Positions 3 through 17,317 of a stretch of DNA of 17,317 nucleotides are shown piece after piece. Position 1 is the stretch's first letter. The number at the start of each line of letters is the position of its first letter. Origin of the DNA: a virus. Lineage: Duplodnaviria > Heunggongvirae > Uroviricota > Caudoviricetes. The stretch lies in the IMG/VR virus record IMGVR_UViG_3300029745_000045; one strand, written 5' to 3'. The translations under genes and the position numbers were made by a program. Below the pieces are notes generated by a model. The model was not told the DNA's origin and did not search any database. It worked only from the letters and a program-made list of their open reading frames with translations.

Positions 3-131
3 GAACCATCCCCGGAACTGCTTCCGGAACCACAGGCGGAAGATGTCACCACGGAAAATGGTGATATTCAGCCGGAGCCACCGGTGACGGATATGACAGA
101 CACACAGCCAGAATCGGGCACAATGCTGTAA
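3..131 (+). CDS. 3' end of an upstream gene (partial, unknown product; acidic Pro/Glu-rich C-terminal tail)
   Basis: Open frame from the window edge to TAA at 129-131, translating ...EPSPELLPEPQAEDVTTENGDIQPEPPVTDMTDTQPESGTML. No start in window; identity not recognised. Confidence 0.3.
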   Translation, partial: EPSPELLPEPQAEDVTTENGDIQPEPPVTDMTDTQPESGTML

Positions 132-426: not shown

Positions 427-960
427 GTGAGCAGAAAACTCCGCTATGGTTTATCGGCTGCCGTTCTGGCGCTGATTGCCGCTGGCGCTTCTGCGCCTGA
501 CATTCTCGACCAGTTTCTGGATGAAAAAGAAGGCAACCACACCACAGCATACCGTGATGGTGCGGGTATCTGGACCATCTGCCGTGGAGCCACCCGGGTG
601 GATGGTAAGCCTGTTATTCCTGGCATGAAGCTGTCGAAGGAAAAATGCGACCGGGTTAATGCCATTGAGCGTGATAAGGCGCTGGCATGGGTGGAGAAAA
701 ACATCCGGGTGCCACTGACCGAACCCCAGAAAGCGGGGATCGCGTCATTCTGTCCGTACAACATTGGCCCCGGTAAGTGTTTCCCGTCGACGTTTTATAA
801 ACGAATTAATGCTGGTGATCGCAGGGGAGCATGTGAGGCGATTCGCTGGTGGATTAAGGACGGTGGCAGGGACTGCCGTATTCGCTCAAATAACTGTTAC
901 GGTCAGGTATCCCGGCGAGACCAGGAGAGCGCGCTGGCGTGCTGGGGAATCGACAGATAA
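427..960 (+). CDS. R: SAR endolysin (T4-lysozyme-like muramidase, phage 21 R-like)
   Basis: GTG start 4 nt after the holin stop. N-terminal Gly/Ala-rich weakly hydrophobic segment (YGLSAAVLALIAAGASA) typical of a signal-anchor-release domain, followed by the E-x8-D-x5-T catalytic spacing (EGNHTTAYRDGAGIWT). Confidence 0.85.
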   Translation: MSRKLRYGLSAAVLALIAAGASAPDILDQFLDEKEGNHTTAYRDGAGIWTICRGATRVDGKPVIPGMKLSKEKCDRVNAIERDKALAWVEKNIRVPLTEPQKAGIASFCPYNIGPGKCFPSTFYKRINAGDRRGACEAIRWWIKDGGRDCRIRSNNCYGQVSRRDQESALACWGIDR

Positions 961-1233: not shown

Positions 1234-1929
1234 ATGAAAGAGATGATTTCTGTCGATCATGAAATATCCATGAGTAGTCTGGATTTTCTGAATAACATTA
1301 TTAATCCAGCCCGGGCAGAAGCCGGAGAAGTCCCTCATGAACCGCGTAAGTTTCTTGCAAAAATTGAGGATGAGCTAGAGCTTGATGGAACCGGAAAAAA
1401 ATTCCGGTTAAACAATAACCAGACAAGAACGGCATACTATGATCTGGATTTTGACCAGATGATGCTCGTTGGCATGAGGGAGTCAAAGGCCGTTCGTCGT
1501 TCTGTGCTGGCAAGACTCAAAGCGATGCATGGTATTCAGATCCCCCGGACTTTACCTGAGGCGTTGCGATTTGCGGCAAAACTGGCTGAACAGAAAGCAG
1601 TGCTGGAAAATCAACTGGCAATAGCAGCGCCGAAGGCTGAATTTGTTGATAACTATGTTGAAGCATCTGGTCTGATGGGATTCCGGGAAGTTGCTAAGTT
1701 ACTCGGTATCAAAGAAACCGATTTCCGGCTGTTTTTGTTGGAGAACGGAATAATGTATCGCCTCGCTGGAAAAATGACGCCTTACTCGCATCACCTGGAT
1801 GCGGGGCGGTTTAGCGTGAAAACGGGCGAGGCGGGCAATGGTCATGCTTTTACGCAGGTTAAATTCACCCCAAAAGGTGTTGAGTGGATTGCTGGTCTGC
1901 TTGCTGCATGGAGAGCTACCGCAGCATGA
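1234..1929 (+). CDS. Phage antirepressor / regulatory protein (Rha-like N-terminal region, KilA-C/ANT-like C-terminal domain)
   Basis: 231-aa ORF with an AAGGA RBS. The C-terminal half (…AEFVDNYVEASGLMGFREVAKLLGIKETDFRLFLLENGIMYRL…FTQVKFTPKGVEWIAGLL) matches the recalled ANT/KilA-C pattern. Assignment from memory of domain signatures. Confidence 0.65.
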   Translation: MKEMISVDHEISMSSLDFLNNIINPARAEAGEVPHEPRKFLAKIEDELELDGTGKKFRLNNNQTRTAYYDLDFDQMMLVGMRESKAVRRSVLARLKAMHGIQIPRTLPEALRFAAKLAEQKAVLENQLAIAAPKAEFVDNYVEASGLMGFREVAKLLGIKETDFRLFLLENGIMYRLAGKMTPYSHHLDAGRFSVKTGEAGNGHAFTQVKFTPKGVEWIAGLLAAWRATAA

Positions 1930-2021
1930 AGATGATAAAAATGGACTGGAAATTTTTGCTGGTCTGGCTGATTCCGTTTTTATGGGTGGTTGCCCAGTTA
2001 ATTACTGCTATCAAGGGGTAA
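1926..2021 (+). CDS. Small single-pass membrane protein, 31 aa (MKMIKMDWKFLLVWLIPFLWVVAQLITAIKG)
   Basis: ATG overlaps the antirepressor TGA (gcATGAag). One hydrophobic helix flanked by Lys residues. Below the ORF-track size cutoff; found by manual translation. Confidence 0.4.
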   Translation: MKMIKMDWKFLLVWLIPFLWVVAQLITAIKG

Positions 2022-2023
2022 AG

Positions 2024-2155
2024 ATGTCAGACAAACTCATAACGCCGGCAAAGGTCCTGTGTGTGATTGTCGGTATTTCATTTTCACTAATGCTGGTTGC
2101 TCTTTTTCTGTCCCTCGCCTGGGTGATGTTGTCTTCGTCGGGGCTGCTGGGGTGA
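2024..2155 (+). CDS. Small single-pass membrane protein, 43 aa (MSDKLITPAKVLCVIVGISFSLMLVALFLSLAWVMLSSSGLLG)
   Basis: ATG at 2024 preceded by AAGGGG (2013-2018); starts 2 nt after the previous small ORF stop; strongly hydrophobic core. C-terminal part of the 1838..2155 track ORF. Confidence 0.45.
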   Translation: MSDKLITPAKVLCVIVGISFSLMLVALFLSLAWVMLSSSGLLG

Positions 2156-4748: not shown

Positions 4749-6406
4749 TACCTGTATGGAGCACAGCCTGCCCGGACTGGGCAGAGCGCCTGAAAAAGGG
4801 GCTGTCGATTATTCCGGATCCGATTTATCCGGACGAGGCCGCACATGCCCTGGCGATTTTTAAACAACTGCGGATTGTGGATGCACCTGGTAGCCCTACG
4901 TTCGGGGAGTCCTGTGCACCGTGGGTGTTTGACCTGGTGGCGGCCCTGTTTGGCTCCTACGATGCGCAGACCGGTGTACGCCATATCAAGGAAGTTTTTA
5001 TCCTTATCCCCAAGAAAAACTCGAAGTCCACGCTGGCCGCGGGGATCATGATGACGGCGCTGTTACTGAACTGGCGGCAGGCGGCGGGTTACACGATTCT
5101 GGCCCCGACTGTGGAGGTGGCGGCCAACGCCTTCAACCCTGCCCGGGATATGGTACGACGTGACGATGATCTGGATGACCTCTGCCAGGTACAGACCCAT
5201 ATCCGGACCATCACCCACAGGGTGACAGACACCACCCTGAAGGTGGTGGCAGCCGATCCGAATACGGTGTCCGGTATCAAGTCCGTGGGTACGCTGATTG
5301 ATGAGTTGTGGCTGTTTGGCAAGCAGTGCAAGGCGGAGGACATGTTACGTGAAGCCATAGGCGGCCTTGCCTCCCGCCCGGAAGGGTTTGTGGTGTATAC
5401 GACCACCCAGTCGAATGAACCGCCCGCCGGGGTGTTCAGACAGAAACTGCAGTACGCCCGGGATGTGCGCGACGGCAAAATTCATGATCCGCACTTTCTG
5501 CCGGTGATATTTGAACACCCTCCTGAAATGGTGGAAAGCGGGGCTCACCTGCTGATGGAAAACCTCGCCATGGTCAATCCGAATCTCGGCTATTCAGTGG
5601 ATGAGGCCTTTCTGTACCGGGAGTACCGTAAAGCCCGGGAAGCCGGTGAAGAGACATTCCGGGGGTTCATGTCAAAACACGCCAATGTGGAAATTGGTCT
5701 TGCCCTGCGCTCTGACCGCTGGGCGGGGGCTGATTTCTGGGAAGAGCAGGGCCGTTGTATCAGCCTGGACGATATCCTGCGTCGTGCTGATGTGGTGACG
5801 GTGGGGATTGACGGCGGAGGGCTGGATGATCTGCTGGGGATGTATGTGATTGGGCGTGACCGGGAGACCCGCGAATGGCTGGGCTGGGGCCATGCCTGGG
5901 CGCATGAAACCGCGGTGGTCCGACGGAAGAGCGAGGCGTCCCGGTTTCAGGATCTTGTTGCCTGTGGAGATATGACCATTGTCCGGCGTGTCGGGGATGA
6001 CACGGCGGAAGTGGCGGAATATGTGCGTCGCATTCATGAGGCTGAGTTACTGGAGCATATCGGTATTGACCCGTCAGGGGTGGGGCAGATTCTGGATTCA
6101 CTGGCGGAAGCCGGGATCCCCGACGGAATTGTGGTGGGGATAAGCCAGGGCTGGAAACTGGGCGGGGCCATTAAAACCACCGAGCGCAAACTGGCTGAAG
6201 GGGTGCTGGTGCATGGTGACCAGCCCCTGATGGCCTGGTGTGTCGGCAATGCCCGGGTGGAGCCTAAAGGTAACGCCATTCTTATCACCAAACAGGCCAG
6301 TGGACGGGGAAAAATTGACCCGCTGATGGCGCTGTTCAATGCGGTCTCCCTGATGTCCCTTAACCCGGAACCGAAAAAGAAAGAATATGCGGTTTTTTTC
6401 ATATAA
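4745..6406 (+). CDS. terL: Terminase large subunit
   Basis: 553-aa ORF coupled to terS, size and position typical of a large terminase subunit. Family-level call from memory, not a search. Confidence 0.85.
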   Translation: MIPVWSTACPDWAERLKKGLSIIPDPIYPDEAAHALAIFKQLRIVDAPGSPTFGESCAPWVFDLVAALFGSYDAQTGVRHIKEVFILIPKKNSKSTLAAGIMMTALLLNWRQAAGYTILAPTVEVAANAFNPARDMVRRDDDLDDLCQVQTHIRTITHRVTDTTLKVVAADPNTVSGIKSVGTLIDELWLFGKQCKAEDMLREAIGGLASRPEGFVVYTTTQSNEPPAGVFRQKLQYARDVRDGKIHDPHFLPVIFEHPPEMVESGAHLLMENLAMVNPNLGYSVDEAFLYREYRKAREAGEETFRGFMSKHANVEIGLALRSDRWAGADFWEEQGRCISLDDILRRADVVTVGIDGGGLDDLLGMYVIGRDRETREWLGWGHAWAHETAVVRRKSEASRFQDLVACGDMTIVRRVGDDTAEVAEYVRRIHEAELLEHIGIDPSGVGQILDSLAEAGIPDGIVVGISQGWKLGGAIKTTERKLAEGVLVHGDQPLMAWCVGNARVEPKGNAILITKQASGRGKIDPLMALFNAVSLMSLNPEPKKKEYAVFFI

Positions 6407-14194: not shown

Positions 14195-16306
14195 ATGGCG
14201 ACGTTACGTGAACTGATTATCAAAATTTCGGCAAATTCGCAGTCATTCCAGTCGGAGATCCAGCGGGCTTCCCGCATGGGCAGTGAATATTACCGGACCC
14301 TGCAGAATGGCGGGCGTCAGGCTGCCGCAGTCGCCCGGGAGCAGCGACGCGCCCTGGCTGAGCTGAACAGCCAGTTGACGGAAATCCGCGCTTCAGCTGC
14401 CGGAACGGCGGGGGCATTTGCAGGTGCCTTTGCCACCGGACACCTGATTTCTCTGGCCGATGAATGGAGTTCCGTGAATGCCCGACTGAAACAGGCGTCG
14501 CAGTCATCCGATGAATTTTCGTCATCACAGAAAGTGCTGATGGATATCAGCCAGCGGACGGGCACGGCATTTTCAGATAATGCGGCCCTGTTTGCCCGCT
14601 CGGCAGCCTCAATGCGTGAATATGGTTACAGTGCTGATGATGTGCTGAAGGTGACGGAGGCCATTTCCACGGGGCTGAAAATCTCCGGTGCCAGTACGGC
14701 AGAGGCGGGCTCGGTGATCACCCAGTTCAGCCAGGCGCTGGCACAGGGTGTGTTACGCGGTGAGGAATTTAATTCGGTCAATGAAAGCGGAGACCGGATC
14801 GTACGTGCACTGGCTGCGGGTATGGGCGTGGCCCGTAAAGACCTTAAGGCGATGGCGGACGACGGCAAACTGACGGCGGATAAAGTCGTTCCTGCGTTAA
14901 TCAGCCAGCTGGGGGTATTGCGTGATGAATATGCCGCCATGCCGGAAACGGTCTCTGACGGGATCACAAAGGTGGAAAACGCCTTTATGGCCTGGGTGGG
15001 TGGCGCGAATGAAGCCAGCGGAGCGACGAAAACGCTCTCCGGCGTGCTGAACGGTGTTGCCGGTAATATTGATAATGTGGCAACAGCCGCGGGGGCGCTG
15101 GTTGCCGTCGGGGTTGCCCGGTACTTTGGCAATATGGCCTCCGGAGCGGTGTCTGCCACGGCAGGACTTGTGACGGCAGCACGTAATGAAGTGGCACTGG
15201 CGGAAGCACAGCTCAGGGGGACGCAGATTGCCACGGCGCGGGCAAGGGCAGCCGTGTACCGTGCACAGCAGGCTGTGGCGGCAGCCCGCGGGACGGAGAT
15301 GCAGATTGCTGCAGAAGCCCGTCTGGCGGCCACACAGGAACGCCTGAACAGAAATATTGCTGCCAGAACCGCAGCCCAGAATGCGCTGAACAGTACAACG
15401 GCGGTGGGCTCACGTCTGATGACTGGTGCGTTGGGACTGGTTGGTGGCGTACCCGGACTGGTGATGCTGGGGGCAGCAGCATGGTATACGCTGTACCAGA
15501 ATCAGGAGCAGGCCAGGGAGTCAGCGCACCAGTATGCACTGACGATAGATGAAATCGCGCATAAAACGCCGTCAATGTCTTTGCCTGAAGCCTCAGATAA
15601 TGAAGGACGAACACGGGCGGCGCTGGCAGAGCAGAACCGGCTGATTGATGAACAGGCCAGCCGGGTGAAATCCCTGCAGGAAAAAATCGCTGGATATCAG
15701 TATGTTCTGGCTAACCCTGGCTGGACAACCGGTGACGGATTCATGATAAACCATCTGACATCGGTGAAGACCGTAACGGAAGGGCTTTCTCAGGCAACAG
15801 AGCAGCTTGCCGTTGAGCAGTCCCGTCTGGCACAGATGCAGGAAAAAGCGCAGTCCATTCACGAACCACTGGGTGAGGGAACGGTTATCCATATTGTGCC
15901 GCGACTGGCCGGAGCCGGAAAGGGCGGACTACAGATTGTGCTGGGGGCAGCTGCCATTGTGGGGGCTTTCTTCACGGCCGGAGCATCAATGGCGTTATGG
16001 GGTTCAGCCCTGGCAGCCGGTGGTTTTTCTGCCACCACGATGCTGTTTTCACTGGGTGCCAGCATGATACTGGGCGGTGTGGCCCAGATGCTGGCCCCGA
16101 AGGCAAAAACACCGGATTACCGCGCAACGGATAACGGCAGACAGAACACGTATTTTTCCTCACTGGACAACATGATTGCCCAGGGCAACCCGATGCCGGT
16201 GCCCTACGGTGAAATGCTGGTTGGTTCACGACGTATCTCTCAGGACATCAGCACCCGTGATGAAGGCGGAGACGGAAAGGTGGTGGTTATTGGTCGACAG
16301 GGATAA
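14195..16306 (+). CDS. Tape measure protein N-terminal portion fused in frame to a lambda gpI-like tail-assembly C-terminus (chimeric, probably a deletion product)
   Basis: Residues ~1-550 fit a tape-measure core pattern (…SGASTAEAGSVITQFSQALAQGVLRGEEFNSVNESGDRIVRALAAGMGV…). Residues ~552-703 (QSIHEPLGEGTVIHIVPRLAGAGKGGLQIVLGAAAIVGAFFTAG…NTYFSSLDNMIAQGNPMPVPYGEMLVGSRRISQDIS…) match recalled lambda gpI C-terminus. At 703 aa it is short for a tape measure. Confidence 0.75.
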   Translation: MATLRELIIKISANSQSFQSEIQRASRMGSEYYRTLQNGGRQAAAVAREQRRALAELNSQLTEIRASAAGTAGAFAGAFATGHLISLADEWSSVNARLKQASQSSDEFSSSQKVLMDISQRTGTAFSDNAALFARSAASMREYGYSADDVLKVTEAISTGLKISGASTAEAGSVITQFSQALAQGVLRGEEFNSVNESGDRIVRALAAGMGVARKDLKAMADDGKLTADKVVPALISQLGVLRDEYAAMPETVSDGITKVENAFMAWVGGANEASGATKTLSGVLNGVAGNIDNVATAAGALVAVGVARYFGNMASGAVSATAGLVTAARNEVALAEAQLRGTQIATARARAAVYRAQQAVAAARGTEMQIAAEARLAATQERLNRNIAARTAAQNALNSTTAVGSRLMTGALGLVGGVPGLVMLGAAAWYTLYQNQEQARESAHQYALTIDEIAHKTPSMSLPEASDNEGRTRAALAEQNRLIDEQASRVKSLQEKIAGYQYVLANPGWTTGDGFMINHLTSVKTVTEGLSQATEQLAVEQSRLAQMQEKAQSIHEPLGEGTVIHIVPRLAGAGKGGLQIVLGAAAIVGAFFTAGASMALWGSALAAGGFSATTMLFSLGASMILGGVAQMLAPKAKTPDYRATDNGRQNTYFSSLDNMIAQGNPMPVPYGEMLVGSRRISQDISTRDEGGDGKVVVIGRQG

Positions 16307-16311
16307 AACAT

Positions 16312-16345
16312 AAAAAAATCCCGCAGTGATCGCGGAGCTGCGGGG
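16312..16345 (-). terminator. Intrinsic terminator on the - strand
   Basis: On the - strand: stem cccgcag / ctgcggg with 11-nt loop, followed by U7 (complement of A7 at 16312-16318). Confidence 0.55.
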
Positions 16346-16409
16346 ACAGACAAATGAAGATTAATGTTAAGGAGTTGTTTTTGTTACTCGGGCAAAAAAA
16401 CACTAACGC
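16312..16409 (-). ncRNA. Candidate ~100-nt small RNA, antisense and convergent to the tape-measure/gpI gene
   Basis: Bounded by a - strand promoter (-35 TTCACA at 16438-16443, 16-nt spacer, -10 TATAAT at 16416-21) and the terminator at 16312-16345. Body is A/C- and U-rich (…GCCCGAGUAACAAAAACAACUCCUUAACAUUAAUCUUCAUUUGUCUGU…). No long ORF. Confidence 0.4.
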
Positions 16410-16415
16410 AGCGAA

Positions 16416-16443
16416 ATTATAAGCGCCACAGTCAGTGTGTGAA
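16416..16443 (-). promoter_or_regulatory. Near-consensus sigma70 promoter on the - strand (TTCACA-N16-TATAAT)
   Basis: Reverse complement of 16416-16443 reads TTCACA cactgactgtggcgct TATAAT: 5/6 match at -35, 6/6 at -10, 16-nt spacer. Confidence 0.45.
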
Positions 16444-16516
16444 AATGTGAAGATATTCAGAATTTTTATGCCATTACCGGTTTTAACCAACAGGATTATC
16501 GGTGGGCATGAAAGAA

Positions 16517-16551
16517 AACCCCGGTATCTGCTGATACCGGGGTTTCTGTTT
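16517..16551. terminator. Strong hairpin, possible bidirectional terminator, ~100 nt upstream of J
   Basis: Perfect 11-bp stem aaccccggtat / ataccggggtt with 6-nt loop (16517-16544), T-rich on the + side (TCTGTTT) and on the - side (UUUUCUUUC). Confidence 0.55.
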
Positions 16552-16648
16552 AGCATGGCAGAAATGTGTTTCATGCTTTTCGGGCGAAGGATATCCGACT
16601 TCTGTACGGAATGGCAAGTGGCGGTTAATTTATTCAGGGGAAGGCTGT

Positions 16649-17317
16649 ATGGGAAAAGGTGGCGGTAAGGCACACACGCCTCGTGAGGCGAAGGATAATC
16701 TCAAATCCACGCAGATGATGAGCGTGATTGATGCGATTGGTGAGGGACCCATTGAAGGTCCGGTGAAAGGCCTGCAGAGTATTCTGGTGAACAAAACCCC
16801 GCTGACGGACACGGACGGTAATCCCGTGATACACGGTGTGACTGCGGTCTGGCGTGCCGGGGAGCAGGAGCAGACACCGCCGGAAGGCTTTGAGTCCTCC
16901 GGGGCGGAAACCGGACCAGGCGTGGAGGTGACGAAGGCAAAGCCGGTGACGCGCACCATTACGTCCGCGAACATTGACCGCCTGCGGGTGACCTTCGGGG
17001 TGCAGTCACTGGTGGAGACCACCTCAAAGGGTGACCGTAACCCGACGTCTGTCCGCCTGCTGATTCAGCTTGAGCGTGGTGGTAAATGGATGACGGAAAA
17101 GGATGTCACCATTAACGGCAAGACCACCTCGCAGTTCCTGGCGTCGGTGATTCTGGATAATCTGCCGCCCCGGCCCTTTAACATCCGGATGGTCAGGGAG
17201 ACGGCGGACAGCACCACGGACCAGCTGCAGAATAAGACGCTCTGGTCGTCATACACCGAAATCATCGATGTGAAACAGTGCTACCCGAACACGGCCATTG
17301 TGGGGCTGCAGGTGGAT
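16649..17317 (+). CDS. J: Host specificity protein J (central tail fibre), N-terminal 223 codons; continues beyond the window
   Basis: ATG at 16649 with GGGGAAGG RBS. Translation MGKGGGKAHTPREAKDNLKSTQMMSVIDAIGEGPIEGPVKGLQSILVNKTPL…NIRMVRETADSTTDQLQNKTLWSSYTEIIDVKQCYPNTAIVGLQVD closely matches the recalled lambda J N-terminus. Not in the ORF track because it has no stop in the window. Confidence 0.9.
   Translation, partial: MGKGGGKAHTPREAKDNLKSTQMMSVIDAIGEGPIEGPVKGLQSILVNKTPLTDTDGNPVIHGVTAVWRAGEQEQTPPEGFESSGAETGPGVEVTKAKPVTRTITSANIDRLRVTFGVQSLVETTSKGDRNPTSVRLLIQLERGGKWMTEKDVTINGKTTSQFLASVILDNLPPRPFNIRMVRETADSTTDQLQNKTLWSSYTEIIDVKQCYPNTAIVGLQVD

Follow-up and report, generated by a model that had tools for sequence, protein, structure and literature searches.

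The window analysed here, a stretch of 17,317 nucleotides from an IMG/VR virus record (IMGVR_UViG_3300029745_000045), carries part of a lambdoid prophage. It opens at the lysis cassette (holin at 207-422, lysozyme, a KilAC/ANT gene and Rz), continues through the terminase, head and tail genes, and ends inside the tail tip gene J. The I-type open reading frame stops at 16306 and J starts at 16649, which leaves 342 bp between them, compared to 60 bp in lambda (I ends at 15444, J starts at 15505). The GC content of this gap is 0.40-0.49, against 0.53-0.67 in its flanks, so that the long, AT-rich insertion between I and J described in the first-pass annotation is indeed present. The upstream gene had been called gpI-like. 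This is correct for its C-terminal side, which contains gpI residues 45-193, but I is not intact, as a deletion has fused it to the tape measure gene. Compared to a close relative, approximately 5.06 kb are missing, comprising the rest of the tape measure gene, M, an OmpC-like porin moron, L, K and the start of I. Judged by its gene content, the prophage in the window cannot build tails.

The insertion holds a promoter and a rho-independent terminator on the - strand (Table 1), both as originally read from the sequence. The promoter matches the consensus at 11 of 12 positions; promoter-like sites numbered three in 1.5 kb, where 0.8 were expected. Two open reading frames cross the gap, one of 128 aa on the - strand (16287-16673) and one of 77 aa on the + strand (16435-16668). 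Neither has a Pfam match, and both are frameshifted in natural variants of the unit that carry a 4-nt deletion or a U-run of altered length, in agreement with the earlier view that no credible open reading frame lies here.

Table 1. Features of the I-J region of the window, with strand and the basis of each assignment.
Feature	Position	Strand	Basis
Upstream gene, tape-measure aa 1-555 fused in frame to gpI aa 45-193 (703 aa)	14195..16306	+	Pfam TMP_3, Phage_HK97_TLTM; 99% identical to the separate TMP and I of NZ_CP075632.1
PasB sRNA, A27/A33 variant, 83 nt	16312..16394	-	Table S6 coordinates (PMC8550237) via alignment; exact probe match
Rho-independent terminator, stem arms 16338-16344 and 16320-16326, then U7 (16318..16312)	16312..16344	-	Scan and fold
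Single-stranded central region, putative seed, CAACUCCUUAACAUUAAUCUUCAUUUGUCUGU (CAACUCCUU..AUCUUCAUUUGUCUGUC)	16348..16379	-	Partner complementarity enriched here only; unpaired in both predicted folds
C/A-rich stretch AAC AAA AAC AAC, candidate Hfq distal-face motif	16374..16385	-	Four A-R-N triplets, read from sequence
Possible 5' extension of the primary transcript, GCGUUAGUGUUUUUU	16395..16409	-	Position from -10 element and predicted fold
Sigma-70 promoter TTCACA-N16-TATAAT	16416..16443	-	Consensus scan, 11/12 positions
AT-rich block upstream of -35, conserved with the promoter; shared module ends here (~16472)	16444..16472	-	Alignments
Perfect 13-bp hairpin, 4-nt loop, U-runs on both strands, terminator-like	16516..16545		Fold; z = -5.8 vs shuffles
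Tail tip/host specificity gene J, 5' part, runs off the window end	16649..17317	+	ORF

The - strand unit at 16312-16443 is the gene pasB, a self-contained promoter-to-terminator unit that lies antisense between I and J of an E. coli lambdoid prophage. PasB has already been described: experiments revealed it in 2021 (Pearl Mizrahi et al., PMC8550237), and a survey of its distribution followed in 2026. Hfq RIL-seq in EPEC O127:H6 strain E2348/69 identified it together with four further 'Pas' sRNAs (PMC8550237). In this strain it is listed as E2348CN_0006, an 83-nt RNA on the - strand of NC_011601 (1466343..1466261) in prophage PP6, between E2348C_1436 and E2348C_1437 (Table S6, PMC8550237). The published Northern probe for PasB, AATCCCGCAGTGATCGCGGAGCT, matches the window exactly at 16317-16339, and only once, with no match expected by chance; its site is on the + strand, so it detects an RNA from the - strand. 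Alignment with NC_011601 showed that 16250-16476 is ~98% identical to the E2348/69 locus, the match starting within the I gene and giving way to unrelated sequence after ~16476, and that 81 of the 83 positions of the RNA are the same. The flanking genes and their orientation agree with the published locus: the unit belongs to a lambdoid prophage and runs antisense to its two neighbours, the genes for tail assembly protein I and tail tip J. The terminator ends in a U tract of 7, the same length as the longest tract given for PasB in the published data (Table S5, PMC8550237). Thus, the moron-like small RNA unit first proposed here from the sequence corresponds to a gene that has been detected by Northern blot, RNA-seq and Hfq RIL-seq at a ~98% identical locus (PMC8550237), and reading the sequence alone had recovered a genuine sRNA gene. 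As the promoter in the window is identical to that in E2348/69, PasB would be expected to be expressed from it.

A covariance search against RNA families and nucleotide searches had been suggested as a check of the unit. Rfam gave nothing credible for the region at gathering or E-value thresholds, the best matches being Gram-positive sRNA models aligned to terminators only (E = 0.03 to 1). The nucleotide searches found a widespread unit, pasB.

The two ends of the RNA compare differently with prediction. The published 3' end maps to 16312, the last U of the U7 run, where it had been predicted and 5 nt from the stop codon of the upstream gene. The published 5' end maps to 16394, approximately 15 nt downstream of the start near 16409 that had been predicted from the promoter. 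A start near G16409 would give a 98-nt RNA, in whose predicted fold GUGUUUUUUU folds back on the A-rich stretch and leaves the centre open. Where PasB fragments form the first RNA of a chimera, none begin upstream of 1466344, equivalent to 16395 in the window. A weak alternative promoter, TAGTGT at 16405..16400, found by eye, fits a start at 16393/16394, with a poor -35 (2/6). The mismatch may arise from trimming in the U-run, from an imprecise, coverage-based end or from a weak alternative promoter. In the mechanism we propose, transcription may begin near 16409, with trimming of the primary transcript in the U-run giving the 83-nt form.

The published data from E2348/69 describe an abundant RNA that depends on Hfq. 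Northern blots confirmed both its size and its Hfq-dependent stability (PMC8550237). Its level was higher in the 'non-activating' condition (overnight static LB), and deletion of hfq changed it by -6.8 log2 units (padj 2e-40) relative to wild type under activating conditions, compared to -2.4 under non-activating ones (PMC8550237). PasB took part in 258 chimeric fragments when cells were in the activating condition and in 1820 under the non-activating one; its 37 RIL-seq partners include no sRNAs, 30 coding sequences or 5' UTRs and four partners in 3' UTRs or intergenic regions (Table S5, PMC8550237). PasB was RNA2, the 3' partner, in 100% and 98.7% of the chimeric fragments in the two conditions (PMC8550237), and such a near-constant position is the hallmark of trans-acting sRNAs that Hfq binds by the 3' end. 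The authors' motif search found no shared target motif for PasB (PMC8550237). The 2026 preprint (Zhu, Shabalina and Storz; bioRxiv 10.64898/2026.05.13.724894) reports 1158 PasB hits, and describes the gene as embedded in the phage structural operon, often the sole Pas gene in a genome and common in extraintestinal isolates. It states that the function of PasB is not elucidated, and no published study describes PasB as regulating a target.

Of 5426 complete E. coli genomes searched, 1612 (~30%) carry the unit, nearly always on the chromosome and between 'tail assembly protein' and 'gpJ', and it also occurs in several Stx-converting and other lambdoid phages. Among the 25 RefSeq records listed, none had an RNA gene annotated under the match. 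An element carried by roughly 30% of complete E. coli genomes is without a matching Rfam family. No copy turned up in two scans of one genome per species with exact patterns, which is compatible with a strain-variable element confined to Escherichia and Shigella and says little beyond that.

To compare natural copies of the unit, we scanned viral contigs with the terminator sequence, which gave 85 loci. Together with the window, E2348/69 and NZ_CP075632.1 these make 88 copies with 24 distinct 230-nt sequences. Both promoter hexamers and the ~30 nt upstream of the -35 were invariant in all 24 variants. The terminator was also invariant, though the search pattern lay within it. Within the RNA, two positions vary (numbered in the 83-nt form), 27 (A/C) and 33 (A/G); the U-run differs in length, and some variants have lost 4 nt. 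A27/G33 was the commonest combination (33/88), while E2348/69 has C27/G33 (12/88) and the window A27/A33 (7/88). More diverged units, ~80% identical, occur in Stx2c phages and in phage PhiR5_1. These relatives keep the -35, vary only in the first base of the -10, and retain UCCUU, AAUCUUC and the terminator stem arms CCGCAG/CUGCGG, but differ elsewhere. As diverged units share the promoter and terminator and differ elsewhere, PasB represents a small family with a variable pairing region.

Which part of PasB contacts its targets? To address this, we fetched 23 RIL-seq partner regions from the E2348/69 genome and scored every 12-nt window of PasB against them by duplex energy, using the E2348/69 RNA with the E2348/69 partners throughout. 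Compared to dinucleotide shuffles, windows at positions 31-50 of the 98-nt form (CAACUCCUUCACAUUGAUCUUCAUUUG) had a mean z of approximately -0.9 to -1.0 over the 23 regions. When length-matched, real sense-strand RNA was used as the control, the predicted pairing of the central region was better than expected for 9 of the 23 partners (p <= 0.05), with a Fisher combined p of 1e-7. The 5' extension showed no such complementarity against sense-strand controls (p = 0.49). Complementarity to linked targets above chance, which marks an Hfq-dependent trans-acting sRNA, was thus found for the central region, and the intrinsic terminator with its U-tail is a further mark of this class. We infer that PasB pairs with its targets via the unstructured centre at 16348-16379. 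The preprint places the seed just upstream of the terminator, from conservation alone (bioRxiv 10.64898/2026.05.13.724894), and this independent proposal speaks for the central seed based on RIL-seq.

Many of the best predicted sites fall where translation begins. For napF, 16 contiguous base pairs span the Shine-Dalgarno sequence and the start codon (-25.4 kcal/mol, z = -6.9). At the fabR 3' end, which serves as ribosome-binding site for yijD, the predicted site had a z of -5.8, and that at the start codon of tolC a z of -5.4. For caiF and trmJ the best predicted sites are also at the start codons, and for ftsZ at the Shine-Dalgarno sequence; those for map, rplX and cesD2 lie within the coding regions. 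This distribution supports a model in which PasB pairing is ordinary Hfq-assisted occlusion of translation initiation sites. Pairing of PasB with the ribosome-binding site of its own J gene was also considered as a general feature and rejected: in the window its predicted energy is -25 to -26 kcal/mol and ranks first among 1704 windows, but the pairing fails in three of four other loci.

The two positions at which the RNA in the window differs from that of E2348/69, C27 to A (16368) and G33 to A (16362), both lie inside the putative seed, so that natural variants differ exactly where pairing is predicted. With the window variant, predicted pairing energies weaken for fabR/yijD (from -17.3 to -10.5 kcal/mol), caiF (from -24.1 to -15.0 kcal/mol) and rplX (from -18.7 to -11.2 kcal/mol), and are unchanged for tolC, ftsZ and hflX. 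The A27/A33 variant, with its two seed differences, would accordingly have a shifted set of targets.

The C/A-rich stretch (AACAAAAACAACUCC, - strand, 16385..16371) had been put forward as the seed or decoy sequence, and on this point the data disagree with the first-pass annotation. Its mean z against dinucleotide shuffles was approximately 0 over the same 23 regions, and positions 20-38 of the 98-nt form, which run into CAACUC, gave a Fisher p of 0.04, compared to 1e-7 for the centre. A-R-N triplets are the motif bound by the distal face of Hfq, and the stretch reads better as an (ARN)4 Hfq-binding motif than as a seed. In the ~80%-identical relatives three of the triplets persist in the form AAG AAU AAU, all changes falling at N positions. 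These changes also preserve wobble pairing, so this conservation is no proof of the ARN reading. An ARN-type motif has been reported for the prophage sRNAs AgvB and AsxR (Tree et al. 2014, PMC4104026).

The C/A-rich stretch also raises the question of whether PasB could be an anti-sRNA or decoy like AgvB, mimicking GcvB targets and titrating GcvB or another GU-rich sRNA. Such prophage anti-sRNAs exist (PMC4104026), and AACAAAAACAAC is similar to the CA-rich sequences targeted by GcvB R1. However, the best 12-nt duplex between PasB and GcvB was only -9.5 kcal/mol, which 94.5% of shuffled PasB sequences at least equalled, and RIL-seq recovered no PasB-GcvB chimeras in either condition, even though GcvB-SroC chimeras were abundant in both. 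Neither the folding with GcvB nor the RIL-seq partners, among which Table S5 lists no sRNA, indicate pairing with the seed of a core sRNA. The location differs as well: AgvB lies downstream of the Q-antiterminated pR' and not in the tail module, while PasB is ~16 kb downstream of its own prophage's holin gene. The Rfam models for AgvB and AsxR (RF02702/RF02703, which share a 3' region of ~42 nt) did not match at the gathering threshold nor at any E-value up to 10. Location, the Rfam negative and the GcvB pairing test together rule out AgvB as the identity of this RNA, and the anti-sRNA explanation, which we regard as very improbable, is refuted as far as the available data go. That the unit has no RNA function of its own, being only a terminator or insulator or else a small protein-coding gene, is scarcely credible. 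The two open reading frames that cross the gap, and the 'hypothetical protein' annotated there in some phage records, speak for it. Against it, neither frame matches Pfam, natural indels disrupt both, PasB itself contains no AUG as read from its sequence, no part of the unit is better conserved than the promoter, and in E2348/69 the RNA is abundant, stabilised by Hfq and has specific partners.

Two further explanations concern what PasB pairs with. As read from the sequence, its gene has an antisense orientation within the late operon and lies 240 nt before J, and the PasB terminator hairpin is not followed by a U-run on the + strand. PasB might therefore act in cis on the late I-J transcript, which after induction would contain its perfect complement, either by forming a duplex that alters processing or J expression, or by being mopped up by the late mRNA. 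We find this decidedly improbable, as all recorded PasB partners are trans-encoded and the complementarity to its own J leader is not general. Moreover, the pasB unit in the window is identical to copies in intact prophages. That it has stayed intact although a 5-kb deletion has destroyed the tail module fits a role in the lysogen. A second strong hairpin had been reported on the J side of the unit as the other boundary of an insulated moron. It is present (z = -5.8), but at 16516-16545 and not at 16517-16551, with arms at 16516-16528 and 16533-16545 that have the sequences AAACCCCGGUAUC/GAUACCGGGGUUU in the window type. Other flank types have CAGGCACC/GGUGCCUG followed by UUGUUUUUG, with a compensatory change in an Stx2c phage. 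All flank types examined have a hairpin and U-run (+ strand) in the stretch that separates the PasB promoter from J, and the idea of an insulated unit seems reasonable from this arrangement.

The most abundant partner of PasB offers a different explanation, that it works mainly with a holin-upstream RNA of co-resident lambdoid prophages, either controlling the lysis cassette or being sponged by that RNA. In the non-activating condition, pasA.E2348C_0689.IGR (743482-743611, +, prophage PP2) accounted for 774 + 24 = 798 of the 1820 PasB chimeras and its PP5 paralogue for a further 54, together 47% of PasB chimeras in E2348/69. The PP2 RNA is structured, has no Rfam family, is flanked by genes for a SASA esterase and a class II holin, and ends in a terminator ~50 nt before the holin ATG. 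Both paralogues contain GACAGACA, which would form an 8-bp core with UGUCUGUC in PasB, the sole clear complementarity between them. The same 8-mer is found at three + strand positions of the window, 95 (which is 105 nt upstream of the holin gene), 5224 and 13315, where 0.45 occurrences were expected on both strands. Yet the extended PasB duplexes at these three sites are unremarkable, the predicted pairing between PasB and the PP2 RNA was no better than that of shuffled sequence (p = 0.13-0.37), and the region upstream of the window's own holin gene is not homologous to the PP2 RNA. In addition, genomes with PasB often have no other Pas locus, so that this partner is not generally co-resident, and two abundant Hfq-bound RNAs can give high chimera counts by themselves. 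We consider this explanation unlikely, if deserving of some weight. An extended version, in which a PasB encoded in the tail module is wired mainly to the holin-upstream RNA of other prophages while the polymorphic positions 27 and 33 give different lineages different sets of host targets, is in our judgement distinctly unlikely. If true, it would constitute an RNA link between prophages that tunes lysis-gene expression or forms a sponge-sRNA pair.

The explanation that we favour is that the unit is pasB, and that its RNA would bind Hfq via the terminator and U7 tail, probably also through AAC-AAA-AAC-AAC as an (ARN)4 motif, leaving the central region CAACUCCUU...AUCUUCAUUUGUCUGUC to pair with targets. 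This pairing would often cover the Shine-Dalgarno sequence or start codon (napF, yijD, caiF, tolC, trmJ and ftsZ), in which case PasB would mainly repress translation. Taken as a whole, from pasB identity through Hfq binding to central-seed pairing and repression, we consider this account very probable. The candidate seed and targets provide a testable handle on its function.

How does this locus compare to known systems? PasB of E2348/69 (prophage PP6) shares with it the I-J position, strand, promoter, terminator and exact probe site. The two loci differ in the sequence from the promoter to J, which in the window is unrelated and 102 bp longer, in the ~5 kb of tail genes that the window's prophage lacks, and in the two seed substitutions. 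PasB also resembles AgvB and AsxR of EHEC O157:H7 (PMC4104026), which are short, Hfq-bound RNAs of lambdoid prophages encoded in moron-like units with their own promoter and terminator. The resemblance extends to an ARN-type motif in the 5' part and to a family that shares its terminator and varies in the pairing region. Unlike AgvB and AsxR, which are located downstream of pR' near the stx and lysis genes, PasB is in the tail module, has no sequence or covariance match to them, no sRNA partner and no complementarity to GcvB, and behaves like an sRNA that targets mRNAs.

Class II Hfq-dependent sRNAs such as ChiX and MgrR have a U-rich 3' tail together with an internal (ARN)n stretch. Their abundance depends very strongly on Hfq, and they use a single-stranded seed to occlude ribosome-binding sites. 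PasB can be likened to this class in its tail, its candidate ARN stretch, its dependence on Hfq and its putative seed. Unlike ChiX and MgrR, however, PasB is encoded by a prophage and is polymorphic within the putative seed.

The largest single share of PasB chimeras in enteropathogenic E. coli E2348/69 under the non-activating condition (47%) was with an abundant, structured, Hfq-bound RNA lying between the genes for a SASA esterase and a class II holin, with its terminator ~50 nt before the holin ATG. Rfam contains no family for this holin-upstream RNA, which apparently has not been treated as a separate RNA before. It has a paralogue in the same genome (see table). A further partner, labelled 'nlpD.E2348C_3010.IGR' in the RIL-seq table, is the 5' end of rpoS (NC_011601 3102416-3102465); RefSeq annotates rpoS in this strain as a frameshifted pseudogene.

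The 8-mer GACAGACA is the complement of PasB UGUCUGUC. The late-mRNA strand of the window carries it three times, besides the antisense copy within pasB at 16345, compared with an expected count of only 0.45 for both strands together. One of the three is situated 105 nt ahead of the holin gene.

The prophage represented by the window is tail-defective. Compared with its close relative NZ_CP075632.1, it lacks ~5.06 kb at an in-frame fusion of the tape-measure and gpI genes; the missing segment spans the C-terminal part of the tape measure, M, an ompC-like porin moron, L, K and the N-terminal part of I. This loss of tail genes has left the PasB unit intact. Elsewhere in the window, a split portal gene takes the form of two overlapping ORFs (8619-9983 and 9980-11203); the NZ_CP075632.1 annotation gives its equivalent as a frameshifted pseudogene. 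The lysis cassette includes a gene with a KilAC/ANT antirepressor domain (1234-1929), flanked by the lysozyme gene (427-960) and Rz (2290-2868).

Features in the window and comparison loci
Feature	Location	Strand	Remarks
Fusion ORF	window 14195-16306		tape-measure protein aa 1-555 + gpI aa 45-193; upstream of PasB
Promoter-to-J hairpins	window 16516-16545; L001 about 1905-1935; L106-L108	+ (U-run)	
Promoter-like site	window 16617..16588	-	TTGCCA-N18-TATCCT, 9/12 match; upstream of 16516-16545 hairpin and U-run
PasB-like units	L106 (Stx2c phage PV98-693) 611-830; L107 (PhiR5_1) 611-830		~80% identity
Holin-upstream RNA	NC_011601 743482 to about 743665 (= L003 2483 to about 2666)	+	
Its paralogue	L004 about 1835-2075		
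GACAGACA copies	window 95-102, 5224-5231, 13315-13322	+	

Between the PasB promoter and J, all flank types have a + strand hairpin followed by a U-run. The hairpin sequences of the window and E2348/69 types are unrelated. In the Stx2c phage the hairpin stem carries a compensatory change, and the window-type hairpin has U-runs on both strands. Judged by sequence, this hairpin and the promoter-like site could delimit a second short - strand RNA, from ~16581 to ~16508; Rfam searches of 16508-16617 (-) returned chance-level matches only.

Diverged PasB-like units, which carry no annotation, occur in the Stx2c phage and PhiR5_1. Both retain the promoter, UCCUU, AAUCUUC and the terminator stem of PasB but differ from it in their central sequence, and their targets are probably other ones.
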